A stretch of 60,193 bases of DNA from a virus (lineage: Duplodnaviria; Caudoviricetes), in IMG/VR virus record IMGVR_UViG_3300038557_000055, positions 1-60,193 of that record; one strand, given 5' to 3'. The position numbers were made by a program, and so were the translations under genes. The notes under the pieces are model-generated. The model had not been told where the DNA came from. It was given only the letters and a program-made list of their open reading frames with translations, and searched no databases. Positions 2,688 to 30,803 of this stretch are shown in pieces (position 1 is the stretch's first letter; every line of letters begins with the position of its first letter).

Positions 2688-2689
2688 GG

Positions 2690-6633: not shown

Positions 6634-6978
6634 TCAGTTATCGGATAGATACCGGTCGCGGAATTTTCGGTTAGCCTCGATCTCGGCGCCGTGCTTGCGA
6701 TATGCCACTGATGATGAAGCCGCTGGTGGAGACGGTCGTGCAGGGGTCTCCGAAGACTTCTGCATCTGCTGCAGGACGTAGTTCGCGAGGCCGATCAAAG
6801 CTACCAAGGCGAGCACCATCAGAGCCACCCCTTCGGTAGAAAGGTTCATTGCCGTGATGGCCCATACGGCTGAGCCTACGGCAATGACAGTGCCGAGGAT
6901 CCTGCCGATCGCTCCGATGACGATCGACGATCCGAAGAGCAGGATGGCCACGATGAGAAGAAGCAGGAAGACAGCCAT
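6634..6978 (-). CDS. Small membrane protein downstream of cI (lysogeny-expressed candidate)
   Basis: 2-3 hydrophobic segments; overlaps the cI stop. Confidence 0.7.
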   Translation of the reverse strand: MAVFLLLLIVAILLFGSSIVIGAIGRILGTVIAVGSAVWAITAMNLSTEGVALMVLALVALIGLANYVLQQMQKSSETPARPSPPAASSSVAYRKHGAEIEANRKFRDRYLSDN

Positions 6979-7682
6979 CACATCACCGAGAACCGGCCTT
7001 TAACCCGGCCGATGATGAAAGCTTCCTCTACCGTTGCCTCATATGGTGAGTAAGACGGGTTGCGGCTGCTCAATCGGATGCGGACCGGGTCAGACTTCGG
7101 AACGATTTCAACGAGCTTAACCACCAAGCCGGTGCCGTCAAACACCAGAAACGGGCCGGGAGGTGACGGCCGCCGGTCCCGAGTATCGCAGATTACGCGA
7201 TCCCCAGAAAACAACGAACCTGGTGCATGTGGATTTGTCGGGTCGTATCCCGAGTCGCCAGACACTTCGATTATCCAAGCCGCAGACGGTTCGGTGTGAA
7301 GCACGCCGCGCAAGAATGAGTCTGGAACGCTCCAGACGTCCCGGACCGCATCGGCGTCCACCGAATATCCGTTCTGGGTATGGGTGATCATCTCGCCCAG
7401 GCCGCCGCCGCCGGCACCGGCGCGGGCGTCGACCTCACGAATGACTCGAGATGACTTTTGAGCGTCATCAGCGTCGATGCCAAGGATCAGCCATTCCGGC
7501 CGAACCTTATATTTTCTGGCATATCGAACAGCATCATCGTTGCTGAAATCGCGGGTGCCATTTTCGTGGTGGTAATAGGACGGGCGAGGCACGCCGAGTG
7601 CATCCGCTGCGTCTCCCGGCGTCTTATAGCCGGCGTTGATACGAGCCTTCTTCAGGCGTTCCGGTTTATCCGCTGTGTTCAT
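6978..7682 (-). CDS. cI: CI-like repressor (XRE HTH + S24 peptidase)
   Basis: RLKKARINAG..AADALGV...YYHHENG HTH; Ala-Gly site; VSGDS and VVK catalytic Ser/Lys; divergent from Cro-like gene. Confidence 0.92.
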   Translation of the reverse strand: MNTADKPERLKKARINAGYKTPGDAADALGVPRPSYYHHENGTRDFSNDDAVRYARKYKVRPEWLILGIDADDAQKSSRVIREVDARAGAGGGGLGEMITHTQNGYSVDADAVRDVWSVPDSFLRGVLHTEPSAAWIIEVSGDSGYDPTNPHAPGSLFSGDRVICDTRDRRPSPPGPFLVFDGTGLVVKLVEIVPKSDPVRIRLSSRNPSYSPYEATVEEAFIIGRVKGRFSVM

Positions 7683-7708
7683 AGCGGCGGACAATCGCAA
7701 ATTTCCGT

Positions 7709-7765
7709 ATCCGATGTGGGTTGACATCTAATAATCCCTTCTGCATATGATTATACAGAACGGAT
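7709..7765 (+). promoter_or_regulatory. PR-like promoter with three operator-like sites
   Basis: TTGACA 7721-7726, 17 nt, CATATG; ATCCGATGTGGGT 7709, ATCCCTTCTGCAT 7734, ATACAGAACGGAT 7753. Confidence 0.75.
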
Positions 7766-17239: not shown

Positions 17240-17291
17240 GGTGGCTTTCTCCTTTCGCTGATCATCAGCATAGATTGAATCGTGGTCGAGG

Positions 17292-17468: not shown

Positions 17469-17502
17469 GTTCTCCTTCTCGGGGTTCCTGTAGCCCATGG
17501 CA

Positions 17503-17730: not shown

Positions 17731-17732
17731 GG

Positions 17733-17936: not shown

Positions 17937-17965
17937 GTGAAATCCTTTCTGGCGCGCGGCGCCGG

Positions 17966-18611: not shown

Positions 18612-18614
18612 GGG

Positions 18615-18974: not shown

Positions 18975-18975
18975 C

Positions 18976-19515
18976 TCAGCGGCCCTCCGCCCGGGCAATG
19001 AGGTCGTCCAGCATCACCAGCTTGATTGACTTCAGGCGTTCGCCCTCGTCATCTCCGGATGATGCCTCGCGTCGCCGGTAGTATTCGACCGTTCGGCGGA
19101 ATTCCTTCACCTCGGCCAAGAGGTCGGGCCGCGCGCGCTCACGCTGTATGGCTTTGCGGAGACCGGCCAGCAGGTCGGGAATGCCCTCCTGTGTCTCGTC
19201 GTCTTCGAAGCCGGCGGCGAAGCTTTCTGCCCTCACCAGCGAGTCGACAGTGTCGTTTACGCTGTTGATGTCGAGGCCGACGAGCTCGTGCTCTGCAATC
19301 TCGACGTAGCAATGCGCCGCGCCGTGAAAGTCCTGCAGCCACTCGACTTTTGCCCGCCAGTTCTTGGCCGTTGCGGTCGGCTTCCGCCTCGAATCCTTCA
19401 ACATGATGTTGACCAACTCAACGGCTTTCAAAGTGGCCGTCGAGGAATCCGCATGCGCCTCGGTTATGAGGCCGGGCACATGGAAGTGTTCAGCGGTCAA
19501 AATATGGATGTGCAT
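18976..19515 (-). CDS. Hypothetical protein
   Basis: GAAAGGA RBS; ends LIARAEGR. Confidence 0.65.
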   Translation of the reverse strand: MHIHILTAEHFHVPGLITEAHADSSTATLKAVELVNIMLKDSRRKPTATAKNWRAKVEWLQDFHGAAHCYVEIAEHELVGLDINSVNDTVDSLVRAESFAAGFEDDETQEGIPDLLAGLRKAIQRERARPDLLAEVKEFRRTVEYYRRREASSGDDEGERLKSIKLVMLDDLIARAEGR

Positions 19516-19528
19516 CGTTGTGATCCTT

Positions 19529-19633
19529 TCAAACTGGCAGCGGAAGGGGCGGCGTGATGAACACGGCCACGGCGAAAATCGCGGCGAGGATCACGACGAG
19601 CTGGAGGAGGTCGGCTAGGAGGTCTTGGAACAT
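19529..19633 (-). CDS. Small membrane peptide
   Basis: MFQDLLADLLQLVVILAAIFAVAVFITPP; AAGGAGG RBS. Confidence 0.55.
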   Translation of the reverse strand: MFQDLLADLLQLVVILAAIFAVAVFITPPLPLPV

Positions 19634-19995
19634 TTCTGTTCCTCCTTGAGCCGTCGGGCGATGTCGGCAGGATCGGCCAAGCCGCCGTTCTTCCAGTCGA
19701 CTCGAGCAACGAACGCGGGGATGAATTCCCAATCGTAGGGAACAAGGTCGAGCGCTTCGGCTCCCTCGTTGCCGCCTATGAGGTCGAAGGTTTCCAGCGC
19801 CTTGTCGGCAAGGCTGATTGCCTCATAGCGCATCGTTGGCGTGCCGTATCGATCCCACATCGTTTCAAGGTCAGTTCGCCAAGCCGGCACAGGCTCATTG
19901 CCCTTCTTGGGGCTGTTCCACCGGGTCGAGGTCATCGCTTCCCAGATGCACAGCGCCGCCTCCATGCGGAGGGTTTCGGAGTAGCGCTTGGTCAT
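19615..19995 (-). CDS. Hypothetical protein
   Basis: ATGA coupling. Confidence 0.6.
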   Translation of the reverse strand: MTKRYSETLRMEAALCIWEAMTSTRWNSPKKGNEPVPAWRTDLETMWDRYGTPTMRYEAISLADKALETFDLIGGNEGAEALDLVPYDWEFIPAFVARVDWKNGGLADPADIARRLKEEQKCSKTS

Positions 19996-20210
19996 GGGCG
20001 CGGCTCCTGTCCCTCGTCATCGATCTGGTAGCGACCCTCGCCGGGGATGACAGAGAGGGTTTGGCCGACCAGCAGCGCCGGCTTGCCTATATGGATTTCC
20101 CCGTCGGCAATCTTGCGCGCGACGGCTTCGGCTACATCGGAATAGCCATAGTCGCGGTAGTAGCGTTCGGCGGCTTGGCGGCTGACAAAGTGCGAGGTTC
20201 CGGAGCGCAT
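19992..20210 (-). CDS. Small hypothetical protein
   Basis: GGAGGG RBS; MRSGTSHF. Confidence 0.6.
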   Translation of the reverse strand: MRSGTSHFVSRQAAERYYRDYGYSDVAEAVARKIADGEIHIGKPALLVGQTLSVIPGEGRYQIDDEGQEPRP

Positions 20211-20214
20211 CGGC

Positions 20215-21423
20215 TCAGCCCTCCGCCCGGCCAGTGTCGCCACAGGCTGCAATCAGAACCCTGCCGTTTTCGGTTGCGATAACCCCTTCGCCTGGGTGGC
20301 TCGCCAGATAGGTGTTAGCCTCCTCGTCTGAGCTGAAAGACGCAGTCACGTCGAAGGTTCGGCCCATCGTGCGATACGTGGTCGGTGCTTCCTGCTGGGC
20401 CTCGGCCTCGTTGACTGGCGCTGGCTCGTCGTCGACTTGCAGCGCCTTGATGACCTCTTGGGCGGCCCAGCGCCCGCCATTGTTCAGGTTCCGTTGCCAC
20501 GCGCCCTCGGATGGAGCCCAACGGAAGCCGTTCCGCTTCAGGAGATCGCGCGTTGTGGCATCGGGCTTCCCGGAGAACAGGATTTGAACGCGAGCGGCCT
20601 CGCCGTTCTCGACAACCTCGACCGCTCCGGCTGTGGTGTTGTGGGTTCGCGAGACGCGCCCCCGGGCGCGGTTACGCTCTATGTTGGCCAGCCGAGCCTC
20701 AAGCCGTTTGATCTCTGCCAGCTTGCCCGAAAGGGCATAAGAGCCATAGCCGCGCCCCATCCATTTATGGGCCGGAGCTACAACCGGCCTTGCGCGCTCC
20801 TCACGCCAGCCGGTGGCGTCAACCACGGCTTGCACCATGGCCTCTTCGCCTTCCTTCAACTTCGAGCGTATCGCGGCGTTGACCACCTTCATGACAGAGT
20901 GGGCGCTCTTGTGAGCCTCGATTTCGGCTCGCAACAGCTCTGGAGCATCCGGGTTGTTGGCGCGGATCGCATCACCGGGCATGCCGTGCGGAAATGCTGT
21001 GCGTTCCACCGCCTTGCGAGCCGCCCCAACGTGCTCGCTCAACGCCTTGTAGGCGTTGTCGGCCCAATCCATTCGCTTGCGGTTGCGATCTGTCGGGAAC
21101 CGCGCCGGCCCGACGATGAACCACGACATGCAGCGGGAATCCATCGCCCATGCCCGGCGTGTCATCGAGACGTGACGGGATGTGAAACGCTCCAGTTCCG
21201 CCGAAACGTCGAGAGTGCCGCCCATGCCAACCATTAGGCCGACGTGCTCGGCAAAGCCGTTGAGGCGCGCTGCCAGGTCTGACAGTTCGTGGCGTGCTCG
21301 CCTGTCAGGAAAGTGGGACAGAGCGTCCCAATTGTTCTCGATTTGCTTCGTGGTCAGCGTGAGCCCAAAGCCGCCGGCGGACACGGTTAAACAGTCCTCG
21401 TGGAAAGATGCAATTGCGGTCAT
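20215..21423 (-). CDS. DUF3560/polyvalent-protein-like early protein
   Basis: SWFIVGPARFP..RN.KR; RVQILFSGKPD...R..LK.NGFRWAPSEGAWQR. Confidence 0.7.
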   Translation of the reverse strand: MTAIASFHEDCLTVSAGGFGLTLTTKQIENNWDALSHFPDRRARHELSDLAARLNGFAEHVGLMVGMGGTLDVSAELERFTSRHVSMTRRAWAMDSRCMSWFIVGPARFPTDRNRKRMDWADNAYKALSEHVGAARKAVERTAFPHGMPGDAIRANNPDAPELLRAEIEAHKSAHSVMKVVNAAIRSKLKEGEEAMVQAVVDATGWREERARPVVAPAHKWMGRGYGSYALSGKLAEIKRLEARLANIERNRARGRVSRTHNTTAGAVEVVENGEAARVQILFSGKPDATTRDLLKRNGFRWAPSEGAWQRNLNNGGRWAAQEVIKALQVDDEPAPVNEAEAQQEAPTTYRTMGRTFDVTASFSSDEEANTYLASHPGEGVIATENGRVLIAACGDTGRAEG

Positions 21424-21512
21424 AGGATTGATCCTTTCGGGCATAGCTCCGCCGTGGCGCGTGACGCGCTCAAACAGGCGGGAACGGTTTCAGTTTGTGG
21501 GTTAGCGGATGC

Positions 21513-22316
21513 TCAGGCCGATCGCGGCCCGTCGGTCTTTCTTTCTACTGGCGCAAAGCCGGCATCGCGGTTGTGTGCCTTCACCAGCGCTTCAACAGTG
21601 AAAGGCTCGCACTGGCCGTGCAGTTCCATCACCAGTTGCGCACCACCCGGCCGGCCGTCTCCTTCGGTGTAAATTGCAGTTCCTCGGCATTCCCAAGGCT
21701 CGGGAGAGCGCCCGCGCACTCGCTCACGAAGGGCAAAGAACAAGTCGGTTCGCCCCTCCAGATCGTCGGTGGCGTTGTCGATGAACCACCACAGCGCATC
21801 GACAAGCGGCATTTCCGCAAGCATTGCCTCGTATGGTCCTGGCACGTGCTCGGCGATGGTGCGCGCGGCTTTCGCGCGCGGCTTGTAGTGGTGATAAAGC
21901 CAGGTTGGGCCGAGGTCGTTGCGGATGCCATGCAGCGCGCTCCCCATGCCTTCCACCGGCCCGCGCCATATTCTGGCGTTGTACCAGTAGATATCGGAGA
22001 GCTGAGCTCTCCACGTCCGGCAGCCGCGTGAGCGGTTGCGCTGGTAGCGGTGAGCCTCGGCGAATGCTTCAAGCGATTGGTGCTCGAATTCGGTTAGGGC
22101 GCGGAAGACGTCCCGCCATTTGAGCCCGAATACCTCGGCGCAGAAATCGGCGCTCGTCGTCCCGTCTTCCTCTTCGGGCAGGCGGACGGAGACTTGATTG
22201 CGGCCGTTGTCCGGCCAGCTATACACGATGTATTTCAAGCCCCGTGAGTTTGTCACCTCGTCACCCATTTCGACCGGGCGACCGTCCTTGTGGAAGAGAT
22301 TTCGCATTTTGCCCAT
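21513..22316 (-). CDS. Hypothetical modular protein
   Basis: 267-aa ORF with TGACCCATG junction. Confidence 0.65.
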   Translation of the reverse strand: MGKMRNLFHKDGRPVEMGDEVTNSRGLKYIVYSWPDNGRNQVSVRLPEEEDGTTSADFCAEVFGLKWRDVFRALTEFEHQSLEAFAEAHRYQRNRSRGCRTWRAQLSDIYWYNARIWRGPVEGMGSALHGIRNDLGPTWLYHHYKPRAKAARTIAEHVPGPYEAMLAEMPLVDALWWFIDNATDDLEGRTDLFFALRERVRGRSPEPWECRGTAIYTEGDGRPGGAQLVMELHGQCEPFTVEALVKAHNRDAGFAPVERKTDGPRSA

Positions 22317-22319
22317 GGG

Positions 22320-22496
22320 TCAGCCCTCCGCCTTCGGATTGATCCCGTGATCCTCGCAAATGTGGCGAAGCGCGCGCGGGTTCTCGATTGGGTAGCGTGC
22401 GCCGCTATCTTTCGTCGGGTTCCACCACTTGCCGAATGCGCCGTGAACCCAGCCCGCCGCACGTACAACGCGTTCCAAATCATTCAGCGTTTGCAT
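22320..22496 (-). CDS. 58-aa hypothetical protein (not in ORF track)
   Basis: MQTLNDLERVVRAAGW...GINPKAEG; bounded by two junction repeats. Confidence 0.6.
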   Translation of the reverse strand: MQTLNDLERVVRAAGWVHGAFGKWWNPTKDSGARYPIENPRALRHICEDHGINPKAEG

Positions 22497-22498
22497 GG

Positions 22499-22831
22499 TC
22501 AGCCCTCCGCCTTGGCGATGGCTGCCGCGACAAGTTCGCGTGCCTTGATTTTGTTCGCCGTTGCCTTCTCTGACCCACGAGCGGAGAGAGCCCGCATGGT
22601 CGGCCAGTCGGCCAGCAATTCCTCAACTGCTTTCAGCGTAGCCAGCATGTCGGACGCGCCGGCGAACAGATGGGCGCGGGCGATTGCTTCGGCCTTCCGC
22701 TTGGCTTCGTCCGGATCGCCGTAACCTTGTGTCCAGCCTACTTCGGCGACGAAGATGTCGCCTGACCAAATCACGGCACGAGCGCAGTATCGATGATCGC
22801 CAGTGTCCTTAATCTCCACGGTGTAGGTCAT
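22499..22831 (-). CDS. Hypothetical protein ending AAIAKAEG
   Basis: GGAGA RBS; ASDMLATLK...AAIAKAEG motif. Confidence 0.65.
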   Translation of the reverse strand: MTYTVEIKDTGDHRYCARAVIWSGDIFVAEVGWTQGYGDPDEAKRKAEAIARAHLFAGASDMLATLKAVEELLADWPTMRALSARGSEKATANKIKARELVAAAIAKAEG

Positions 22832-22897
22832 TTCGATATCTCCATAGGCAAGCCGGCGCGCACCTGGCACGGCAACGGCTGCAAGGGTTTCGGGCTT

Positions 22898-23083
22898 TTA
22901 GGTGCGCAGGAAGTCGATGCGCGTTTTGGGGTTGGCGATGATGTATTCCGCCAGTTCCCGTTCGGTCATCAACGAACCGACACGACGGCCGTTTTGCATT
23001 ACATAGCCGTCATCGATACGGCTGGTGAAGTCGTTGGCGCGAATGACCAACAATGGTTCTGCTGTGCTTTGTGTAGCGCCCAT
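22898..23083 (-). CDS. Small hypothetical protein
   Basis: GAGGG RBS; MGATQS. Confidence 0.5.
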   Translation of the reverse strand: MGATQSTAEPLLVIRANDFTSRIDDGYVMQNGRRVGSLMTERELAEYIIANPKTRIDFLRT

Positions 23084-23090
23084 CGTGCCC

Positions 23091-23198
23091 TCACAGTTCC
23101 AGGAACATACGCTTTGCAGCGATGCGGGCGCGGCGGTCGTCGCGGCGGATACGGCCAGCGGGCCGGTCGGTGAACTGAATACGTTCGGTCTTGCGCAT
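23091..23198 (-). CDS. 35-aa Arg-rich peptide (not in ORF track)
   Basis: GAAAGGA RBS; MRKTERIQFTDRPAGRIRRDDRRARIAAKRMFLEL. Confidence 0.55.
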   Translation of the reverse strand: MRKTERIQFTDRPAGRIRRDDRRARIAAKRMFLEL

Positions 23199-23284
23199 TT
23201 CGATATCCTTTCTAGGACGTGCCACAATTGGCGGGTTGATCTAGCGACCATCGCAACGCCGCGCTGGCGGCGCTGAAAAAGAGG

Positions 23285-23584
23285 CTAGGGCAGGTCGTTG
23301 TGTGCGAACCGCGCGGAACCGACCTTGGCGATATTGGAAAGCGCGACGAGCTCCCCCTCCTTCCTGACATGCTCGCAATAGTCCGCTTCGCCGAACTGGC
23401 CCGTGCCAGCCGCTATGCGTTCCTCTTGATCATCCCAACGAACGCGGCCATGCGTCTTTGGCATTCCCTCATACGGGCCAAGATAGGTGCCACGGCGCTG
23501 GGGAGCCGAACCGGTGAACTGTCCGGTGTTGCGCAGGAAGGATGCGGCGAGGGCTATGCGGTCGCCTGCTATCAGCTTGGCCAT
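23285..23584 (-). CDS. Hypothetical protein
   Basis: TGACCATG junction. Confidence 0.65.
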   Translation of the reverse strand: MAKLIAGDRIALAASFLRNTGQFTGSAPQRRGTYLGPYEGMPKTHGRVRWDDQEERIAAGTGQFGEADYCEHVRKEGELVALSNIAKVGSARFAHNDLP

Positions 23585-23586
23585 GG

Positions 23587-23772
23587 TCAGCGCTCCAGCT
23601 CACACACAACCGGGGCATGAGCCAGGTTGCGGCGTAGATCATTGGGAAGGTCGCGGGGCAGGGCACGCGCGGCCACGGCTTGATTGCAGTCGTCATAGGT
23701 AAGGCCGGTGTCCAGCATATAGGAATGGGGCTGGCCTGACATGAGCAGGTAGGCGACAAGGGCGAACTTCAT
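23587..23772 (-). CDS. Small hypothetical protein
   Basis: MKFALVAYL...DTGLTYDDC. Confidence 0.55.
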   Translation of the reverse strand: MKFALVAYLLMSGQPHSYMLDTGLTYDDCNQAVAARALPRDLPNDLRRNLAHAPVVCELER

Positions 23773-23777
23773 TGCCG

Positions 23778-24056
23778 TCAACCGTTGTAGATGGTGGACG
23801 TATGGCCGAACGTGCCCGGTCCATGATCGAAGTAGGCAAGGACGCCCGCCGTATGCAGTTCGTCCATTGCGTCCAGCACAACACGGGTGCTTTCCATACC
23901 AGCATCCGGCAGGCCCATAACCTCGGCCATAGCAAGCCAGTTGATAAAGACTGCGTGCTGGTTGTCGCATGAAGGGCTGGCTGCTGAGTGGGTGGCGCAA
24001 TAGCCCATAAGCGCAACCGCGTGTGCAGATAGCGCGCTCTTAGCAATCGTGATCAT
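23778..24056 (-). CDS. Hypothetical protein, first gene of the leftward accessory operon
   Basis: GGGAGA RBS downstream of promoter at 24135-24162. Confidence 0.6.
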   Translation of the reverse strand: MITIAKSALSAHAVALMGYCATHSAASPSCDNQHAVFINWLAMAEVMGLPDAGMESTRVVLDAMDELHTAGVLAYFDHGPGTFGHTSTIYNG

Positions 24057-24134
24057 CGGGTGATCTCCCGGCCTGCATGGGTTTCACAATTGAAACGCCT
24101 TCCGCCTTGGCCGTGTGTCATCGCTGACAGTCAC

Positions 24135-24174
24135 AGAATAGCCGAACCGGAATAGGTGTCAATCCATTTCGGAT
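24135..24174 (-). promoter_or_regulatory. Leftward early promoter with operator
   Basis: Minus strand TTGACA-16-TATTCT; ATCCATTTCGGAT at 24162-24174 abuts the -35. Confidence 0.7.
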
Positions 24175-24296
24175 AAAAATTTGCATTTTGTGACACGGCA
24201 ACTGAGCCAAGAACGGCACGGGCGCACGATAGCAAGAGCCATGCCAAGTGGACGGCCAGAGAGACAAGGGAAGGGCAGGCGGGACAAGCGCTCGAG

Positions 24297-24378
24297 GCCC
24301 CTACCGGGTGTCGGGTTAAAAAGTTGAGAGTAGCTACAGGACCGGCGTGCGCAGTGAAATTTTCGCGAGTGCAGAAAA
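24297..24378. other. Putative cos (cohesive end) region
   Basis: GGGT..GGGTTAAAAAGTT..GGACCGGCGTGCGCAGTGAAATTTT..GCAGAAA layout resembles cos regions of HNH/terminase phages. Confidence 0.5.
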
Positions 24379-24397
24379 CACCCTTTTGCAAAATTGT

Positions 24398-24438
24398 ATC
24401 CGTAGCGGATTGACAATATGCAAACTGGATAGTAGCGT
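24398..24438 (+). promoter_or_regulatory. Rightward early promoter with two operators
   Basis: TTGACA 24410-24415, 17 nt, TAGCGT; ATCCGTAGCGGAT 24398 and ATGCAAACTGGAT 24418. Confidence 0.72.
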
Positions 24439-24466
24439 CGGGGCACATCAGATGAAGGTCACTGAG

Positions 24467-24655
24467 ATGCCTGACCAACTGCAACGGAAGTCATCGGAAC
24501 TGCCCAGCCGAGCACCGCTGGATTACGTCGAGATCTCGCCCTGGAGTGAGAAAGCCGCCACCGCGGAGATGGATTTCGACGGCTGGGATTTGTTCTTCCT
24601 CTGCCTCGCCTTCCTGATGATCCTCGGCGGCGTGGCCATCTGGCTCAGCTACTAG
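24467..24655 (+). CDS. Small C-terminally anchored membrane protein
   Basis: C-terminal LFFLCLAFLMILGGVAIWL. Confidence 0.55.
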   Translation: MPDQLQRKSSELPSRAPLDYVEISPWSEKAATAEMDFDGWDLFFLCLAFLMILGGVAIWLSY

Positions 24656-24737
24656 CGCCGCCATCCTCCCAATCGAAACCACCTCAACCTTGTTCCTGCG
24701 ATGGAACGAGGTTGGCCGAACACATCCGGAGATATCC

Positions 24738-25673
24738 ATGTTCCACGACGTCAAGATCATCGAGAGCGCCGAAGACAACGTCAGCAAGTACGTCTTCACC
24801 GGCGACAACGCCGTCGCCGAGGCGGTGCTCTACCGGTATCCGGACTATGCGACCCGGACTGTCATTTGCTGCTCGACGATGAGCGGATGTCCCGTCGGTT
24901 GTCGCTTCTGTGGCGCTGGCGACCACTTCGTTCGAAGCTTCTCTGGCGATGAGATCGTTGCCCAGGTTGATCGATGCATCGCAGATACGGGCGTCGATCC
25001 GGCCAAGATGAAGCGGCTGCAGATCATGTTCATGTCGATGGGCGAGCCGTTGCTCAACCCAAGGGGCATGCAGGATGCTCTTCGAGCGCTCTATGCCAAA
25101 TACCCCAACGCAGCGCTGCTGATCAGCACGATCGGTCCAGACGTCGACTACGATTGGGTGAGAGATATCAGTGTCGAGATCCCAACGGTCGGTCTTCAGT
25201 TCTCGGTACACAAGTCCAGCGATGCCGAACGCGACATGCTCATTCCGTTTCGGAAGAAGCTTCCACTGAATTTCATCGCTTACGAAGGTCAGGAGTGGTC
25301 GAAGGAGACGGGGCGGAAGCCGTTCTTCAACTATTGTGCCGGAGATGACAATTCTTCAGTCATCGACGCCGACCGGCTTCGCGAGCGGTTCGATCCCGCG
25401 ATCTGGAATGCAACGGTCAGCGTGATCTGCGAGCGCAATGAGGGCCTACCGGCCAAAAACGAGCACCAGATCAAGCTCGCTGCCGATTTCGCATCGCTGC
25501 TCGTCGAACGAGGCTTCGATGTTCGCGTGTTCGATCCTGCCGGCCAGGACGACATCGGCGGCGGATGCGGCCAGCTCTGGTTTGTCCAGCAGTGGATGCG
25601 AGACCATCCCGAGCTTGCTCATCCCAGCATCGGGCATGGGTTGCCGAGCGTCCACACTCCGGCCGTAGCGTGA
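24738..25673 (+). CDS. RlmN/Cfr-like class A radical SAM methyltransferase
   Basis: ICCSTMSGCPVGCRFC, MSMGEPLLN, ISTIG, FSVH, DDIGGGCGQL; GGAGA RBS. Confidence 0.92.
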   Translation: MFHDVKIIESAEDNVSKYVFTGDNAVAEAVLYRYPDYATRTVICCSTMSGCPVGCRFCGAGDHFVRSFSGDEIVAQVDRCIADTGVDPAKMKRLQIMFMSMGEPLLNPRGMQDALRALYAKYPNAALLISTIGPDVDYDWVRDISVEIPTVGLQFSVHKSSDAERDMLIPFRKKLPLNFIAYEGQEWSKETGRKPFFNYCAGDDNSSVIDADRLRERFDPAIWNATVSVICERNEGLPAKNEHQIKLAADFASLLVERGFDVRVFDPAGQDDIGGGCGQLWFVQQWMRDHPELAHPSIGHGLPSVHTPAVA

Positions 25674-25681
25674 GGTGCCGC

Positions 25682-26005
25682 ATGGCCAAGTTCCGCAAGG
25701 GTGATGTCGTTTCTCTCGAGGTGATCGTCGAGAGCCATTTCCAAGGAAACGACGTTCGGCTTCGGCTGGAGGCCGGATACCAAGACATCTATGCCAAAGC
25801 AGACCAGATCAGAATGGTCCGACCGGATATCAAGGTCGAAGACACCATCGAATGGGAGGTCGGTGGGATCATCAATAGCGGCGAGGTCATTGGTGTCGCT
25901 GACGATCACGCATGGGTGAAGTATGGCGACGGAAATTTTGCGACCGTTGCGCTGAAGTTTGCGAGCCGAGTTGATCTCCCGGCCCCTGAAGAGGAGGTCG
26001 CGTGA
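25682..26005 (+). CDS. Hypothetical protein (tandem small beta-barrel-like)
   Basis: MAKFRKGDVV...IKVEDTI; GAGG RBS. Confidence 0.65.
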   Translation: MAKFRKGDVVSLEVIVESHFQGNDVRLRLEAGYQDIYAKADQIRMVRPDIKVEDTIEWEVGGIINSGEVIGVADDHAWVKYGDGNFATVALKFASRVDLPAPEEEVA

Positions 26006-26280
26006 TGGGCAACGCGGAAGCCATGAAGATTTTCGGGGTTCTCGGTGGGCCTGTCCATCCAACGGAATGGCGCTTGCCTGATGGTGGGTCGATCACGTCC
26101 CCAGGCGTAGCGCTGCGCGATTGGTTTGCAGCTCACGCATCCGACCAAGATGTTGAGCATCATCGCGAACTCACCCTCGGCACCGACGGCTCGACCTTTT
26201 GGAAGCGGAGCAGGGAAGAGGCTCGCTTTGCGTTCGCGGACGCCATGCTCGCTGAGAGTAGGAAGGTCGGTGCGTCATGA
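26002..26280 (+). CDS. Phage hypothetical protein (LRDWFAA..ADAML type)
   Basis: GGPVHP, GVALRDWFAAHA, FADAMLAE. Confidence 0.7.
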   Translation: MMGNAEAMKIFGVLGGPVHPTEWRLPDGGSITSPGVALRDWFAAHASDQDVEHHRELTLGTDGSTFWKRSREEARFAFADAMLAESRKVGAS

Positions 26281-26675
26281 CAAAACGCTACACTCGCGCC
26301 GACTTCGATCCCTTCATCGGGGACGGCACATCAAGGAACAAGCCACAGCCGCTCCCGAACGCCGTAGATGCCGATCCGCTCCGCTTCCTCAATGACCTTG
26401 CGGCGCGCGGTCACATGATGGAGCCGGTTTGGGGCTACGCGATGCTCCCTGCCGAGAACCGGACACAATGGACACAGTTCTTCCTCCTCTATGACGCCAT
26501 GGGCGGCGGTGGTGGATATGCCGTGACCTACGGCGGCAACAAACCGATTGTCCGCCAGTTCACAATCTGCCGGCATGAAAAGGTCATGCATTCGGATGCT
26601 CGGCCCGAGTATGGCTGGCGACCAGGCCACTGCAAGCACTGTGGCATGGACATGTCGGTCGACAGCTCCGGGTGA
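26277..26675 (+). CDS. Hypothetical protein with C-terminal Cys/His motif
   Basis: CRHE...GHCKHCG. Confidence 0.65.
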   Translation: MTKRYTRADFDPFIGDGTSRNKPQPLPNAVDADPLRFLNDLAARGHMMEPVWGYAMLPAENRTQWTQFFLLYDAMGGGGGYAVTYGGNKPIVRQFTICRHEKVMHSDARPEYGWRPGHCKHCGMDMSVDSSG

Positions 26676-26678
26676 TCC

Positions 26679-27122
26679 ATGCCGATCAAACCGGAGAACA
26701 TGTCGAAGTATCCAGGCGGCTCGACCAAGTCGCCGGAGTGGCGCGCGATCAGGAAGCGGATCGGCCAGCGCTCAGGCTGGAAGTGCGAGAGGTGCAAGGC
26801 GCCGAACCTCAAGATGATCGCCCGCGGATCGTACAACGGTCGCGAGGCTTACATGGTGGTCGAAACCAGCGAGATCTTCTGCGCTGAGACCGGTCTCGCC
26901 ATGGGCAAGATAAAGCGGTCGGACTTCAACGCTCGCAAGGTGCTGAAGGTCATCCTGACCGTGGCGCACCTCAACCACGACGAGACCGATAACCGGGATG
27001 AGAACCTGGCTCACCTCTGCCAGCGGGATCATCTCCGGCACGACCACAAGCAACACATGACGAACGCGGCGCGCACCCGGAGAAATCGGGGCGGCCAGAT
27101 GGATTTGGAGGACATGCTATGA
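26679..27122 (+). CDS. HNH-like endonuclease
   Basis: CERC...LTVAHLNHD...N...NL..LCQRDHL.HD. Confidence 0.8.
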   Translation: MPIKPENMSKYPGGSTKSPEWRAIRKRIGQRSGWKCERCKAPNLKMIARGSYNGREAYMVVETSEIFCAETGLAMGKIKRSDFNARKVLKVILTVAHLNHDETDNRDENLAHLCQRDHLRHDHKQHMTNAARTRRNRGGQMDLEDML

Positions 27123-27691
27123 CTGAATTGACCCTGGAAGCGCTCGGACTCGATCAGGAGAAGCTTTCCGAAAAGCTGGTCGACCGACTGGCGAAAAACG
27201 TGCTCACGAGCATCGGTTACGATCCCGATGGAGACGAATGGTTCGGAACGAGCCCGTTCGCGAACCGGCTCAACGAATTGGTGAGGGCTCGGCTCGATCA
27301 GGTCGTAAACGACTTGGCCGACAAGCACGTGTTGCCTCGTGTGAACGAGATGGTCGAAGGGCTGGTGCTGCAGGAGACCAACAAGTGGGGAGAGAAGGTG
27401 GGCAAAACTCTCACCTTCATCGAATACCTCACCCAGCGTGCCGACGCCTACATGTCAGAGCCGGTGAGCTACAACGGCAAGACGAAAGCCGAAGACAGCT
27501 ACAACTGGCGCCAGTCGACCACGCGTATCGCGTACATGGTCGACCAGCATCTCCAATATTCGATCTCGCGTGCCATGGAGCAGGCGATGAAGGATGCGAA
27601 CACCAGCATCGCCACGGGTCTCAAGGGCGCCGTCGAGAAGTCCCTCGGGGAAGTTCTGGAGAAGCTGAAAATCGATGTGAAGACGAAGTGA
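27119..27691 (+). CDS. Hypothetical helical protein
   Basis: GGAGG RBS; ATGA coupling. Confidence 0.7.
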   Translation: MTELTLEALGLDQEKLSEKLVDRLAKNVLTSIGYDPDGDEWFGTSPFANRLNELVRARLDQVVNDLADKHVLPRVNEMVEGLVLQETNKWGEKVGKTLTFIEYLTQRADAYMSEPVSYNGKTKAEDSYNWRQSTTRIAYMVDQHLQYSISRAMEQAMKDANTSIATGLKGAVEKSLGEVLEKLKIDVKTK

Positions 27692-27698
27692 GGGCAGG

Positions 27699-28184
27699 AT
27701 GATCCACCTTCCTCAGATATTCGTCGACATGGACGGCGTCCTGGCCGACTTCGACACCGGGTATGAGCAGCACTTCGGAATTCGGCCGAGCAAGTCTGAT
27801 GACAACGTCGATTGGGCGTTGGTTCGTCGGACAGACGGGTTCTACAGCAACCTGCCTCCTATGCCCGATTTCGAGCTGCTGTGGGCCGGCCTCATTCCCT
27901 TCTCACCGATCATCCTCACTGGTGTGCCGAGCTCGGTCGCAGAGGCCGCTGAAAACAAGCGCGCATGGGTTCGGAAGCATATCGGTCCAGATCAGCCGAT
28001 GATCGCGTGTCCATCGAAGGACAAGAGCCTTCACATGCGTCGGCCGGGCGACGTGCTGATCGACGATTGGGAGAAATACCGTTCCCTGTGGATCGGACGG
28101 GGAGGCAGGTGGATCACCCATATCTCTGCGGAAGCGTCCCTCGAACAGCTCGATGTGGTTCTCGTCGAGGCGGTGGCGCCATGA
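27699..28184 (+). CDS. HAD-family 5'(3')-nucleotidase (NT5C-like)
   Basis: FVDMDGVLADF, ILTG, K..WV, VLIDD. Confidence 0.88.
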   Translation: MIHLPQIFVDMDGVLADFDTGYEQHFGIRPSKSDDNVDWALVRRTDGFYSNLPPMPDFELLWAGLIPFSPIILTGVPSSVAEAAENKRAWVRKHIGPDQPMIACPSKDKSLHMRRPGDVLIDDWEKYRSLWIGRGGRWITHISAEASLEQLDVVLVEAVAP

Positions 28185-28333
28185 CCCTATTCCGCGTCCA
28201 CTACAACGACGGCAGCACGATGGATGTCGATGCTGACCGACCCGACAACGCCCGCAAGACAGCTCTGGAGACCCGCAAGGGCATCATCACGAAGGTCAAG
28301 GTGGTGAAGGAGAAGGCCGAGGCCGATGGCTAG
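28181..28333 (+). CDS. Small hypothetical protein
   Basis: ATGA coupling; MTLFRVHY. Confidence 0.55.
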   Translation: MTLFRVHYNDGSTMDVDADRPDNARKTALETRKGIITKVKVVKEKAEADG

Positions 28334-29690
28334 AGATAGACGCCCACCCGCAACGCGTTCCCCCTATGAAATGATTGGCAGATCGATGTTCGAAAAAATT
28401 CAGAAGCCACAGGAAACGAAGCAGGATCACGTGCAGGGGTGCGGCGATCCCAATTGCCAGATTTGCATGCCGAAGGGCGGCTCTGGAGGAGGGAGCAAGG
28501 TCTCTGGTGACGATGTTTCGTGGATCGTCCCCGATGGGAGCATCGAGGATGTGGTTGCCAGGGAACTTCTCTTCAGAGCCGGGAGGCTTACCTTCAGTGG
28601 AGTGGATACATCCGACCCGAAGCGCGCAGCGAGGGATAAGGAACGAGAGCTCCGCCGAAAAGTTGAGCAGTATTTGCTCAAGACACAGCATTCGCTGGCA
28701 TGGGACGATGTGATCGGAAACGAGGCAGCCCGCACGGCCCTCGTCGAAGCCATTGAACATCCGCTGGTGCACAAGGATCTCTATGCTCACTACCAGAAGA
28801 AGCCGACGAAGGGCGTCTTGCTCTACGGAGCGCCGGGCAACGGTAAGACCATGTTCGGCAAAGCTGCAGCTTCGATTCTCGCCAAGCTCAACAAGCAAGC
28901 CGGCGACGTGACGATGCTGTCGATCAAGGGGCCTTCGATCCAGAGCCCTTATGTCGGTGTCACCGAAGGGATCATTCGGGACATCTTCGCCTACGCGGCT
29001 GCTTACAAGGCACTGCATGACGTGCCTCTGGTCGTCTTCATCGACGAGGCAGACTCTATCCTTCCCAGCCGCGACGGGTCGAATAGCAGGCGAGCTCTTC
29101 CATGGGAGGAATCCAACGTCGCGACGTTCCTTGCCGAGATGGACGGCCTCGACGAATCCGGCGCGCTCGTGATCCTCGCGACCAACCGACCAGAGTCCAT
29201 CGACGCCGCGATCCTTCGGGACGGTCGATGTGACCGGAAGATCAAGGTCGAGCGGCCCGACGAGGAGGCATCACGGCAGATCATCCTGCGCAATCTCGTC
29301 CACGTGCCTCTGTCACCAGGTGAAACGGCCGAGGAGTGCGCCACCTATGCCGCTGGCTACCTGTTCGACTGGTCTCATCGCATTGCGAGGCTGAAAACCG
29401 ACAAGGGACCAGATTTCTTGACGCTCGGCCATATCGTGAGCGGGGCAATGGTGGTTGGCTTGGTCGAGGTCGCCAAGGGTGTCGCGTTCCGGCGCGATCT
29501 GGCGGCTGGCGGTGTACCGACAGGCATCTGCAAAGACGATATCCGCGTTGCGATCGACACGGTTTTCGAGCAGAACCGGGGCCTCACTCACGAGTACGCC
29601 CTTCGCGACTACATCGAACGCCACGACATCAAGAAGATGTCAATGGAGTTCGTGCGGGTCGAGTATCCCGAACAGCAAGTGATCCACTGA
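28326..29690 (+). CDS. Classic-clade AAA ATPase (ARC/Mpa/CDC48-like)
   Basis: GVLLYGAPGNGKT, FIDEADS, ATNRPESIDAAILRDGRCDRKIKVERPD, SGAMV. Confidence 0.92.
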   Translation: MARDRRPPATRSPYEMIGRSMFEKIQKPQETKQDHVQGCGDPNCQICMPKGGSGGGSKVSGDDVSWIVPDGSIEDVVARELLFRAGRLTFSGVDTSDPKRAARDKERELRRKVEQYLLKTQHSLAWDDVIGNEAARTALVEAIEHPLVHKDLYAHYQKKPTKGVLLYGAPGNGKTMFGKAAASILAKLNKQAGDVTMLSIKGPSIQSPYVGVTEGIIRDIFAYAAAYKALHDVPLVVFIDEADSILPSRDGSNSRRALPWEESNVATFLAEMDGLDESGALVILATNRPESIDAAILRDGRCDRKIKVERPDEEASRQIILRNLVHVPLSPGETAEECATYAAGYLFDWSHRIARLKTDKGPDFLTLGHIVSGAMVVGLVEVAKGVAFRRDLAAGGVPTGICKDDIRVAIDTVFEQNRGLTHEYALRDYIERHDIKKMSMEFVRVEYPEQQVIH

Positions 29691-29702
29691 GGGGAGGCGG
29701 AC

Positions 29703-30338
29703 ATGAGTGTTTCAGCATATCCGCTTCATTGGCCGGTTGGTCGGCCGCGCAAGGAAAACCGCAAACGAGCGGCCTTCGGGAAGAGGGTGAAAAACGGCAA
29801 GTGGGATGAGACCAAGGATCTCACGGTTGCCGATGCGATCTCACGGCTCCAGCAGGAAATCGACCGGCTCGGTGCTCGTCTGCCGGTGATCTCCAGCAAT
29901 CTGGAGCCTCGGCTCGATGGGCTTCCAAGATCAGGGCAATCGGAACCTCGCGACCCGGGCGTTGCCCTCTATTTCGATCTGAACGGCAAGCCGCACTGCA
30001 TGCCCTGCGATACCTATGACCGGGTAGCGGACAACATCGCAGCCATTGCCAAGCACATCGAGGCGACAAGGGCGATTGATCGGTTTGGTGTCGCGACGGT
30101 GGCCGAGATGTTCACGGGCTTTGCAGCTCTGCCGGCACCGGGTGCGAAACGAGGCTGGCGCGAAGTGATGGACTTCATGCCAGGTGATGACCCTCAGATC
30201 ACAGTCGCCGTAATCGAAAGCCGTTATCGTCGCTTGGCTTCCACTCGGCACCCCGATAGGCCCGGCGGTTCCCACGACATGATGGCCGAACTGAATGCCG
30301 CGCGCGACGAAGCGCTGAAGGCGGTTCGCAATGACTGA
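29703..30338 (+). CDS. Phage J-domain (DnaJ-like) protein
   Basis: AYPLHWP N-terminus; C-terminal YRRLA..RHPDRPGGS..MMAELNAARDEAL. Confidence 0.88.
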   Translation: MSVSAYPLHWPVGRPRKENRKRAAFGKRVKNGKWDETKDLTVADAISRLQQEIDRLGARLPVISSNLEPRLDGLPRSGQSEPRDPGVALYFDLNGKPHCMPCDTYDRVADNIAAIAKHIEATRAIDRFGVATVAEMFTGFAALPAPGAKRGWREVMDFMPGDDPQITVAVIESRYRRLASTRHPDRPGGSHDMMAELNAARDEALKAVRND

Positions 30339-30449
30339 TCGCGGTATCCGCTTTTCCCCAGCCATGGTTCGCGAATTGCTGGCGGGCAGTCCGTGGGTTG
30401 TCGTCGTCTCGTTTACGGTCGAGCAGCGCAACATTGATCAGGCGCACCC

Positions 30450-30803
30450 ATGAGCAGCGATCGCATTCCGTGCTGCGTGCCGTTCTGCCGGCGCACCCGC
30501 CGAGATGATGGAAGCTTCTCGGAATGGATTTGTGGAAAGCATTGGGCACTGGTCAGCCGCAAGGCTAAGCTGATGAAGCGCCGTAGCGAGGCAGCATACG
30601 ACGCCGCGAAGCTGGAATGTGAAGAGATATCGAGCGAAGGCGATGAGTTCGCCAGGACGCAAGGCGGCGGCATTGCCGTCTCGCAAGAGATCATCGACCG
30701 CCTTCGGGTGGCTGCCGCCAAGCACCAAAGGAAGTGGGCTCAGGCCGGTCGGGCATGGGATCGATGCAAGCGTCAAGCGATCGAGCGGTCAGGGGGCATC
30801 TGA
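30450..30803 (+). CDS. Hypothetical Cys/His protein
   Basis: CCVPFCRRT...ICGKHW. Confidence 0.65.
   Translation: MSSDRIPCCVPFCRRTRRDDGSFSEWICGKHWALVSRKAKLMKRRSEAAYDAAKLECEEISSEGDEFARTQGGGIAVSQEIIDRLRVAAAKHQRKWAQAGRAWDRCKRQAIERSGGI

Follow-up and report, generated by a model that had tools for sequence, protein, structure and literature searches.

RlmN (E. coli YfgB; TIGR00048; PDB 3RFA, 5HR7 and 6FZ6) makes m2A at 23S A2503 and tRNA A37, and Cfr (NF000424 / TIGR04432; PDB 9P0P), a resistance determinant, makes m8A2503 in 23S rRNA. To our knowledge, no other characterised enzymes methylate aromatic carbons via an S-methylcysteine radical, and every characterised enzyme of their class acts on RNA. 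A cryo-EM study of Cfr describes its N-terminal HhH2 domain as crucial for rRNA binding (preprint 10.64898/2026.02.27.707579). The gene described here lies in IMG/VR record IMGVR_UViG_3300038557_000055, whose full 60,193-nt stretch we refer to as the window. This record is classed as a provirus and encodes a CI-like repressor, TerL, portal, major head protein, tape measure and endolysin, confirming the initial annotation of the gene as prophage-borne.

24738..25673, + strand: short RlmN/Cfr-like radical-SAM methyl synthase gene, 311 aa, identified from motifs, profile matches and predicted fold

The gene is contained in an open reading frame at 24690..25673 (+), starts at ATG 24738 with a GGAG located 6 nt 5′ of the ATG, and could be extended upstream by 16 codons at most. 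Its 311-aa product contains the cluster motif C51-x3-C55-x2-C58, a resolving C44 (within ICCSTMSGC) 7 residues before C51, MSMGEP at 99-104, STIG at 130-133, SVH at 156-158 and a methyl-carrier C277 in GGCGQL, so that every motif named earlier for an RlmN/Cfr-type radical-SAM enzyme with a complete two-cysteine apparatus is found in the translation. The protein matches the TIGR00048 RlmN profile (E=3.6e-26) and, among PDB sequences, RlmN 6fz6 (E=1.2e-16) and Cfr 9p0p (E=1.9e-14). An AF2 model (pLDDT 92.2) gave 11 best Foldseek matches that were all RlmN/Cfr chains (TMq 0.60-0.74), followed by viperin-like enzymes at TMq ≤0.52. The likeness to RlmN and Cfr is far beyond chance, and the protein has the features that define class A radical-SAM methyl synthases, namely the three-Cys motif, carrier Cys and resolving Cys together with a partial TIM barrel and beta-extension. 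The profile alignment spans only positions 71-342 of 355, leaving the N-terminal HhH2-type domain of ~60-70 residues absent, as the initial annotation had said of the accessory domain, and the protein is acidic, with a pI of 5.12 and a net charge of -12.

The surroundings of the gene comprise the following elements:

6978..7727, − strand: CI-like repressor (phrog_4, E=2.7e-26)
24157..24185, − strand: left arm of a 29-nt inverted repeat, supplying the -35 element in a promoter-like site that would serve the leftward genes
24387..24415, + strand: right arm of the 29-nt inverted repeat, ending in TTGACA (24410-24415), with palindrome ATCCGTAGCGGAT, from the repeat and promoter scans
24452..24655, + strand: first ORF of the rightward unit, 67 aa (62 aa from ATG 24467), with a hydrophobic C-terminal segment, from the ORF list
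24685..24714, + strand: stem of 12 bp at 92% complementarity around a 6-nt loop, located after the first ORF and ahead of the radical-SAM gene, with no T-run behind it
25676..30803, + strand: close-packed downstream genes of the rightward unit, from the ORF list and family searches, made up of the entries below
From 25676, + strand: three small genes without known function, directly after the radical-SAM gene
26679-27122, + strand: HNH endonuclease
27119-27691, + strand: gene without known function
27699-28184, + strand: NT5C-type 5′-deoxynucleotidase
28326-29690, + strand: AAA ATPase
29703-30338 and 30450-30803, + strand: two genes without known function

The proposed immediate-early status is not supported, as the CI-like repressor and the divergent early operon beside it (MT-A70 methylase, primase and DnaB), which form the true immunity and early region of the prophage, sit 17 kb to the left of the radical-SAM gene. 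That gene is part of a different, rightward unit that precedes the packaging genes. The description of the gene as second after an operator-controlled promoter stands only in its first half: it is the second ORF of this unit, but the operator could not be upheld. The two repeat arms (24157-24185 and 24387-24415) are 83% complementary and each contain TTGACA and an ATCC..GGAT palindrome, but this palindrome pattern occurs 4 times in the window against 4.14 expected from shuffles, and we rejected it as an enriched operator motif. The leftward promoter-like site, TTGACA-16-TATTCT with 10/12 matches, was the sole site of the two to pass the promoter scan; the right-arm TTGACA, which has a poor -10 and was not called, is a candidate -35 or regulator site for the rightward unit. 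The gene would be expressed from its own unit, located between the modules for replication and packaging, and not by way of the early promoters that CI controls. The 67-aa ORF in front of it has no PHROG match and its longer GTG form no Pfam match, and since it matches no family we rejected it as a detached RlmN N-terminal domain. None of the genes in 25676..30803 accompanies the radical-SAM gene in relatives, and positions 20000-44000 of the window gave no megablast match among 50,697 phage records. No RNA data set was listed as covering positions 23500-27500, and four sequencing runs guessed to be RNA yielded just short contig pieces from related phages (88-99% alike), which are uninformative on transcription.

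The window protein scores 92 bits with TIGR00048 (91.4 in a six-frame search) against a curated cut-off of 290, and 70.8, 67.2 and 66.6 bits with the Cfr models NF000424, TIGR04432 and NF011024, whose cut-offs are 530, 550 and 468. Its pairwise identity to canonical RlmN/Cfr proteins is 25-31%, comprising 26-31% to RlmN, except for 25% to one of six host RlmN sequences, and 27-29% to Cfr. In the tree, canonical RlmN and Cfr fall in one clade (SH-aLRT 95-96%) with the window protein beyond a split of 95% support, and Cfr, Cfr(C) and Cfr(D) form a 100%-support clade inside the canonical group that does not include it; the protein is therefore not nested among host rlmN genes. It matches phrog_24834 (function unknown, E=5.3e-12) and 79 representative clusters at E≤1e-30, and close relatives among the matches listed are mostly ~270-320 aa. 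One viral collection has 283 viral-contig loci that encode a relative, and viral members make up 67-84% of the nearest Atlas clusters. Copies at 44-86% identity are spread over 10 or more bacterial phyla. C44, C51, C55, C58 and C277 are kept in 112/112 phage-type and 12/12 canonical sequences, and the SAM-motif residues (alignment A1) are invariant or nearly so. Judging from these sequences, the protein belongs to a separate, large, mostly viral clade that is a third branch beside RlmN and Cfr.

Comparison of the gene with three relatives gave dN/dS values of 0.03-0.09, indicating strong purifying selection, and all 5 host genomes checked also have a full-length canonical RlmN above the curated cut-off, so the gene does not look like a decaying capture. 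Among 72,556 plasmid records the clade is absent; we found only true cfr and rlmN genes there, and no relative above ~31% identity. Of the 27 other window proteins tested, none adjoins a copy of the radical-SAM gene in relatives, which rejects each of them as a conserved partner; a few gave weak matches (21-36% identity, ≤2 loci each) kilobases away in other arrangements. On this pattern, the radical-SAM gene would be single-gene cargo moving between phages.

To compare the substrate-binding surfaces, contact residues of Cfr were taken from the Cfr-rRNA cryo-EM structure and mapped onto 112 phage-type and 12 canonical sequences. Cfr R327 (E. coli RlmN R344) is replaced by F265, Cfr S103 (RlmN T116) by V42 and Cfr S187 (RlmN T209) by L128 in 112/112 phage-type sequences. 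Cfr R184 (RlmN R206) has become A or F in 108/112 (A in 92 and F in 16; A125 in the window protein), and Cfr R185 (RlmN R207) has become A, E, Q or S in 98/112 (A126 in the window protein). Among the 12 canonical sequences, R is found at R206 in 12, at R207 in 10 and at R344 in 12, and T or S at both T116 and T209 in 12. Two RNA-contacting positions are kept, R40 (E. coli RlmN R114) and R193 (Cfr R249), and Y34 of the window protein is equivalent to Cfr Y97; the placement of pocket residue N288 (Cfr) / N307 (RlmN) differs between the two alignments used. The clade instead has a pocket signature of its own, consisting of Y32, Y34, R40, V42, Q95, M97, L128, G152, Q154, T226, S228 and F265 plus GGGCGQL, which is invariant or nearly so in the 112 sequences, present in the window protein and common to the two fusion proteins P0271 and P0141 described below. 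Phage-type cores, 119 in all, have a median pI of 5.62, compared with 6.0-9.1 for canonical cores.

NAD+ salvage is the centre of a well-studied conflict between phages and bacteria, and NAD genes are the commonest neighbours of the radical-SAM gene among 119 related loci. NUDIX/NrtR, NadV, PncA, NadE, Prs, PncB or NadD lies within 4 kb in 25/119, counted only among loci that carry the gene, and the remaining 94/119 have no NAD-salvage gene within that distance. By reading of 22 gene maps, ~15 have a NAD gene directly adjacent. The NAD label is scattered on the gene tree, with 19 changes, at least 11 of which are forced by well-supported branches. On a Saccharibacteria contig, genes for PncB, PncA, a histidine phosphatase, the radical-SAM enzyme, NUDIX, NadE and NadD are clustered together, with MetRS and TatD on the flanks. 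The window-type pocket also occurs in fusions, P0271 (His_Phos_1 + radical SAM, 57% identity to the window protein) and P0141 (radical SAM + NUDIX, 41% identity, 2 members on 2 contigs), amounting to 3 sequences in total; among more distant short forms, the fusion partners are isochorismatase (5 members) and an HD phosphohydrolase. As a separate neighbour, His_Phos_1 was seen only at one locus (L024), and we rejected it as a frequent one. The window itself contains no NAD-salvage gene, its sole match being weak (73 aa, E=1e-4). The association may partly reflect the collecting of accessory genes by large phages, because in the genomes of 9/10 large phages the NAPRTase-family gene is not close by but 13 to ~107 kb from the radical-SAM gene by their coordinates. 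The repeated adjacency to and fusion with NAD-recycling enzymes suggest that the target is probably not the ribosomal or tRNA site implied by the enzyme's name.

We tentatively propose, at a little short of even chances, that the protein works as a class-A methyl synthase whose substrate is a free nucleotide from the NAD network. It is predicted to be a stand-alone working enzyme of the large, mostly viral class-A clade. From the conserved residues, a first SAM would methylate C277, and a second would be cleaved at the [4Fe-4S] cluster held by C51, C55 and C58 to give a 5′-deoxyadenosyl radical. This radical would activate the S-methyl group, which would add to an sp2 carbon in an aromatic heterocycle, and the covalent adduct would then be resolved by C44. 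The substrate is the uncertain step of this scheme: it would not be 23S rRNA A2503 or tRNA A37 bound in the fashion of RlmN and Cfr, and a free adenine- or pyridine-containing nucleotide of NAD+ salvage, such as NAD+, NMN or ADP-ribose, seems likelier, in which case the enzyme of a 60-kb temperate phage would act on the host nucleotide pool. Against this reading, RlmN-type enzymes turn over slowly, and slow turnover would be better suited to a stoichiometric target than to a metabolite present in bulk. The bolder claim, that this would be the first class-A radical-SAM methyl synthase to work on a free mono- or dinucleotide, C-methylating NAD+, NMN or ADP-ribose on the adenine or pyridine ring, we regard as possible and on balance unlikely. 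Where the initial annotation allowed for a possibly new substrate, we consider a new one very likely.

RNA was the substrate chiefly expected in that annotation. The alternative that survives best, although we think it unlikely, is an RNA C-methylase that forms m2A or m8A in tRNA, rRNA or another RNA of host or phage, with a new mode of recognition that does without the N-terminal domain. Such an enzyme could serve in translation tuning or in shielding tRNA from defence nucleases. The only homology is to RlmN and Cfr, both characterised members of the class; the beta-extension and the C-terminal loop, which in Cfr together cradle the adenine, are of similar length; and Y34, R40 and R193 match residues of the canonical enzymes. 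A universal RNA site would also account for the 44-67% identity seen across many phyla, and tRNA genes lie within 4 kb in 12/119 loci, with the copy in Stenotrophomonas phage ANB28 located inside a tRNA cluster. Set against this are the loss of the N-terminal domain and of the basic and hydroxyl residues that hold the RNA backbone, the acidity of the clade, fusion partners that are small-molecule hydrolases with no RNA-binding domains among them, and recurrent partners and neighbours that are NAD and nucleotide enzymes rather than tRNA or RNA-repair genes. The window has neither a tRNA gene nor an Rfam match, which rejects a phage-encoded RNA target inside it. On these sequence comparisons, an RNA target for the clade appears doubtful.

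A further alternative, for which the initial annotation left room by naming DNA, strikes us as improbable: here the enzyme would C-methylate adenine, either within DNA or in the dNTP pool, and so mark the phage DNA against restriction. The lost Cfr contacts to the ribose 2′-OH and 3′-O are compatible with a deoxynucleotide, the NT5C-type deoxynucleotidase is encoded within the same rightward unit, 2 kb downstream, and the HD phosphohydrolase fused to a distant short form resembles dNTP-pool enzymes of phage base-replacement pathways. However, the NT5C gene is unlinked to the radical-SAM gene in all relatives, the protein is acidic and has no DNA-binding domain, and the neighbours belong to NAD salvage, not to dNTP synthesis. 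With two SAM consumed per methyl group and slow turnover adding to the cost, genome-wide modification would be expensive, and the prophage is in any case replicated along with the host chromosome. Finally, although some relatives are named ‘23S rRNA (adenine2503-C2)-methyltransferase’ in databases, a Cfr-like resistance determinant making m8A2503 or a recent, decaying capture of host rlmN is extremely unlikely, the former rejected by scores far under all curated cut-offs, by the absence of the clade from plasmids and by the loss of both the H91/H92-anchoring N-terminal domain and the H90-binding R184/R185, and the latter by the separate clade in the tree with 25-31% identity to canonical enzymes, the hosts' own RlmN in 5/5 genomes and the low dN/dS.

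If the proposed action on free NAD-network nucleotides is correct, phages, some Saccharibacteria and Actinomycetota would make a modified cofactor, decoy or inhibitor, and this product could blunt immunity that relies on NAD+ degradation or NAD+-derived signals (TIR, SIR2 and RES systems), adding a new layer to the NAD-centred arms race. RlmN and Cfr would then represent one branch, specialised on RNA, within a broader family of enzymes that methylate nucleotides. Either way, the substrate of the clade would reveal a new nucleotide modification and counter-defence principle or a new mode of RNA recognition. Automatic annotation routinely labels members of the clade ‘23S rRNA (adenine2503-C2)-methyltransferase’ or flags them as Cfr-like, and our results support neither label.

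Our literature search, over main texts, turned up no description of a phage RlmN-like enzyme, nor of any radical-SAM enzyme encoded in an NAD-salvage operon. The closest parallel in gene context is with the NAD+ reconstitution systems NARP2 (NadV + NatV) of Vibrio phage KVP40 and NARP1-AP, which includes the macro-domain phosphatase Adpp (10.1101/2024.02.11.579819, 10.64898/2026.01.28.702374). As described in the main texts of these papers, Adpp accompanies NARP1 much as the radical-SAM gene stands near NAD genes, NadV and NatV-like NUDIX among them, in 25/119 loci, a likeness of context and not of sequence; those main texts mention no radical-SAM enzyme, and the supplementary operon lists may name accessory genes. 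The window phage differs in having no NARP genes, and the radical-SAM chemistry would be C-methylation where NARP is resynthesis. With Cfr, the window protein has in common the fold, the two-cysteine chemistry and the residues Y34 (Cfr Y97) and R193 (Cfr R249), but it lacks the N-terminal domain, scores 67-71 bits against cut-offs of 468-550 at 27-29% identity, and belongs to a clade that is not found on plasmids and in which residues contacting A2503, the U-turn and H90 are mostly replaced; we saw no indication of a resistance function for it. With RlmN, it differs in being phage-borne and extra to the host's RlmN, in lacking the HhH2 domain, in its acidity, its 92 bits against 290 and its separate clade, and in the replacement across the clade of R206, R207, R344, T116 and T209 by A/F, A/E/Q/S, F, V and L, respectively. 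It nevertheless shares with RlmN the radical-SAM core fold (TMq 0.70-0.74), the CxxxCxxC motif with the resolving Cys 7 residues upstream, the carrier Cys in the ..CGQL loop, the beta-extension and the SAM motifs.

The radical-SAM gene of the prophage encodes P0001, a short RlmN/Cfr-like protein:

24690..25673, + strand: radical-SAM ORF, read from the ATG at 24738 (GGAG 6 nt before it) as a 311-aa protein (P0001)

The translation carries the cluster motif C51-x3-C55-x2-C58, the segment ICCSTMSGC in which the resolving cysteine C44 stands seven residues ahead of C51, and MSMGEP (99-104), STIG (130-133), SVH (156-158) and GGCGQL, which includes the methyl carrier C277, so that every motif named by the initial annotation is found. 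Pfam recognizes a generic Radical_SAM domain only (35.2 bits, cut-off 29.5), PHROGs assigns phrog_24834 (function unknown, 5.3e-12), and in NCBIfam the three Cfr models reach 67-71 bits (cut-offs 468-550) and RlmN TIGR00048 reaches 92 bits (curated cut-off 290). The TIGR00048 match spans profile positions 71-342 of 355, which bears out the reported lack of the N-terminal domain of RlmN. Sequence matches in the PDB are confined to RlmN and Cfr (5 distinct sequences; best 6fz6 at 1.2e-16 and 9p0p at 1.9e-14). An AlphaFold2 model built from a 30-sequence alignment (A1) has mean pLDDT 92.2 and pTM 0.91, and in a Foldseek search of the PDB with this model RlmN or Cfr chains take the 11 top places (TMq 0.60-0.74), followed by viperin-like enzymes at TMq <=0.52. 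The motifs, together with sequence and structure matches restricted to RlmN and Cfr, therefore confirm the earlier sequence observation. From the conserved residues and the fold, we infer that P0001 has an intact class-A methyl synthase apparatus, which would methylate an sp2 carbon via mCys277 and C44.

P0001 is nevertheless neither RlmN, nor Cfr, nor a captured host gene, candidates that we rejected on bit scores, tree topology, separate host RlmN genes and dN/dS. All five host genomes searched that contain a phage-type copy, i.e. a member of the short viral RlmN-like clade, also encode a full-length RlmN above cut-off (323-456 bits), whereas the phage-type copies in the same genomes reach 89-102 bits against the RlmN profile. 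We built a 93-row tree (IQ-TREE quick search, LG+G4, support from SH-aLRT only) from E. coli RlmN, six host RlmN, Cfr, Cfr(C), Cfr(D), 30 labelled phage-type sequences and 52 representatives. Canonical RlmN and Cfr enzymes share one clade in it (95-96% support), and P0001 groups with Hyphomonas and Rhizobium copies in a 56-row clade on the other side of a split with 95% support. The initial annotation had named, as a result that would refute its proposal, a position within host rlmN genes that marks the gene as recently captured and decaying; the tree, pairwise identities of 25-31% to canonical enzymes and dN/dS values of 0.03-0.09 against three relatives, with dS near saturation, indicate otherwise, and Cfr-like resistance or host capture is scarcely credible as an explanation. 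P0001 belongs to a distinct, selected and mobile viral clade.

This clade is widespread. Of 7909 candidates in a word-indexed protein search with P0001, 6253 matched at E<=0.001, and the 120 top-ranking ones are 67-100% identical and 308-384 aa long. An exhaustive search of representatives gave 4640 matches at E<=0.001, of which 79 reached E<=1e-30; the close matches listed are mostly ~270-320 aa. In 185,579 species genomes we found 64 loci with a relative (41-86% identity), distributed over Alpha-, Beta- and Gammaproteobacteria, Myxococcota, Actinomycetota, Saccharibacteria, Bacillota, Bacteroidota, Planctomycetota, Fusobacteriota and Lentisphaerota, and in a few cases on contigs binned as archaeal; copies 45-61% identical at two such loci (L026, L055) lie on contigs binned as Methanobacterium and Woesearchaeota. 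IMG/VR contains 283 loci with a relative, viral sequences make up 67-84% of the nearest ESM Atlas clusters, and phage records gave 39 matches, of which the best 13 (46-61% identical) come from lytic or large Stenotrophomonas, Xanthomonas, Salmonella, Vibrio and Aeromonas phages and one uncultured phage. Carriers include ~40-60-kb temperate phages, T5-like phages and phages of 170-430 kb. Among 72,556 plasmid records no match exceeded ~31% identity, and those matches were genuine cfr and rlmN genes. Of the 27 other window proteins tested, none adjoins the gene in any relative, even beside copies 79-86% identical, and their few weak matches (21-36% identity, <=2 loci each) are kilobases away in a different arrangement; the gene is single-gene cargo.

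Three clusters of relatives outside the window (P0273, P0274, P0275; 40-45% identical, 642-648 aa) contain an intein with a LAGLIDADG homing endonuclease, inserted in P0273 exactly at the third cluster cysteine (C58 equivalent), with extein halves that align to P0001 residues 1-58 and 58-297. Saccharibacteria are epibionts of Actinomycetota, and the copies from a Mycolicibacterium (L019) and a Saccharibacteria (L021) locus pair with 99% support on short branches (0.083 and 0.14), which would fit gene flow between the two groups.

The record is classed as a provirus (CheckV completeness 78%) and its layout is lambda-like, in agreement with the prophage setting first proposed:

1263-3679, - strand: Sak4-like and ExoVIII-like recombination genes
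6978-7727, - strand: CI-like repressor (phrog_4, 2.7e-26)
9237-10574, 12139-13248 and 13190-14674, rightward, divergent from the repressor: MT-A70 DNA methylase, primase and DnaB of the early operon
16441-24056, - strand: leftward block of mostly unknown genes, with a second primase-like gene at 20215-21441 (phrog_19458, 6.2e-35)
24452-30803, + strand (rightward): unit with the radical-SAM gene
24452-24655, + strand: first ORF of this unit, 67 aa with a hydrophobic tail, no family match
TerL at 32613; portal, prohead protease, major head protein, tape measure, tail fibre and endolysin

Within its unit the radical-SAM gene follows the 67-aa ORF as second ORF, and the next gene begins 3 nt past its stop. 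The leftward and rightward units are separated by a 395-bp gap, which contains a 29-nt inverted repeat (24157-24185 / 24387-24415, 83% complementary), both arms of which include TTGACA and an ATCC..GGAT palindrome, and a promoter scan placed the leftward site alone above threshold (TTGACA-16-TATTCT). The repeat looks like a second prophage regulatory switch, separate from the CI/Cro region. Of the initial proposal of a second gene behind an operator-controlled promoter, the gene order and a promoter-like, possibly regulated site hold; the palindrome pattern shows no enrichment in the window (4 matches, 4.14 expected). The label 'immediate-early' falls because the immunity switch is 17 kb from the gene. 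A 12-bp stem with a 6-nt loop and no T-run after it (24685-24714) separates the first ORF from the radical-SAM gene and could be a processing or attenuation site. The unit also includes an NT5C-type 5'-deoxynucleotidase (27699-28184; 26.1 bits, cut-off 24.8) and a 454-aa AAA ATPase (28326-29690; 101 bits), neither of which accompanies the radical-SAM gene in relatives. The MT-A70-type DNA adenine methylase of the early right operon (9237-10574; 77.5 bits) means that the phage already owns a conventional DNA methylase. The second primase-like gene exists alongside the primase/DnaB pair at 12139-14674, and the leftward block may be a mosaic replication module or the remnant of a second element. 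A 388-aa ORF (5467-6633, + strand) with no Pfam or PHROG family match adjoins the CI-like repressor on the strand opposite to the left operon, a place typical for a prophage moron or exclusion gene.

In our exploration of the genomic neighborhoods, we scanned 148 loci and recovered from 119 of them a full-length radical-SAM ORF carrying both motifs. All ORFs within 4 kb were then grouped by similarity, and Pfam identified the largest clusters as NUDIX with an NrtR winged helix (17), NAMPT/NadV (14), isochorismatase/PncA (10), NAD synthase (7), Prs-like (5), PncB (5) and NadD (4). A local HMM recount found at least one NAD-salvage gene within 4 kb at 25/119 loci and none at 94/119; before it, the figure was 22/90 loci with full flanks. 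Read by eye, ~15 of 22 gene maps show direct adjacency in several different orders, such as NatV-like NUDIX-NadV-radical SAM, PncA-radical SAM-NUDIX/NrtR and NadE-radical SAM-NUDIX. A FastTree built from the 119 proteins needs 19 changes of the NAD label to account for 24 labelled rows; well-supported branches force at least 11 of these changes, and one labelled locus (L089) falls within the supported 14-row clade of P0001. On a Saccharibacteria contig, one flank of the gene holds PncB, PncA and a histidine phosphatase, the opposite flank holds NUDIX, NadE and NadD, and MetRS and TatD border the whole cluster.

Fusions extend this picture. P0271 joins His_Phos_1 to radical SAM (57% identical to P0001, 1 member) and P0141 joins radical SAM to NUDIX (41%, 2 members on 2 contigs), three sequences in all for fusions of the window type. 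P0271 and P0141 match the P0001 pocket signature at 20 of 21 compared positions, differing at A126 and, for P0141, also at D266. Among more distant short forms, the fusion partner is an HD phosphohydrolase (P0222) or a PncA-like isochorismatase (P0268, 5 members on 5 contigs), the latter in a subfamily without the resolving cysteine. P0268, P0250, P0240 and P0264 keep the cluster motif and the C-terminal CGQ cysteine and have T or I at the resolving position, which suggests different chemistry in the same metabolic neighborhood.

The window has none of these NAD-salvage genes, its one 73-aa match (E=1e-4) probably being chance, and its copy is a stand-alone member in a temperate phage without NAD genes. 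We searched ten large phage genomes whose copy lacks a NAD neighbor; nine carry a NAPRTase-family gene elsewhere (13 to ~107 kb away, by arithmetic from coordinates), the exception being phage ANB28. Published figures place the NAD+ reconstitution pathways NARP2 (NadV and NatV) in ~1.1% and NARP1 in ~4.3% of sequenced phages. Large phages are richer in NAD-salvage-type genes, and the count of 25/119 covers only loci with the gene; part of the NAD signal may therefore be an accessory-island effect. As substrate class we tentatively prefer, at slightly less than an even chance, a free nucleotide, adenine or pyridine, from the NAD network.

A new kind of RNA methylase is rather unlikely, though to be taken seriously. 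tRNA genes lie within 4 kb at 12/119 loci. A cryo-EM preprint on Cfr bound to rRNA (10.64898/2026.02.27.707579) describes the N-terminal domain as crucial for rRNA binding, reports contacts mostly with phosphate and sugar, and lists which residues surround A2503 and the U-turn and which run along helix H90. We mapped these residues by aligning 12 canonical enzymes with 112 distinct phage-type sequences. The five mechanistic cysteines are invariant in both sets (12/12 and 112/112). Cfr R327 (E. coli R344) is R in 12/12 canonical enzymes and F265 in 112/112 phage-type sequences, R184 (R206) is R in 12/12 and A or F in 108/112, R185 (R207) is R in 10/12 and A, E, Q or S in 98/112, and the S/T found in 12/12 at Cfr S103 (T116) and S187 (T209) is replaced (V42, L128) in 112/112. 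R40 (E. coli R114), R193 (Cfr R249) and Y34 (Cfr Y97) are kept; Cfr N288 was given no weight because two alignments disagree by two residues. Phage-type cores (n=119) have a median pI of 5.62 and net charge of -6, with pI >7 in 11, and P0001 has pI 5.12 and net charge -12, compared with pI 6.0-9.1 for canonical cores. Residue replacement and acidity argue against RNA held in the RlmN/Cfr manner and would be compatible with RNA bound in another mode.

We regard DNA or the dNTP pool as a quite improbable target; the remaining probability goes to something else. Neither our literature searches nor term searches of main texts (an RNA-modification review, NARP papers and a jumbo-phage survey) gave an account of the short viral RlmN-like family, or of NAD-salvage operons that include a radical-SAM enzyme. 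The chemistry is already known; the clade itself is uncharacterised, and its substrate is probably new.
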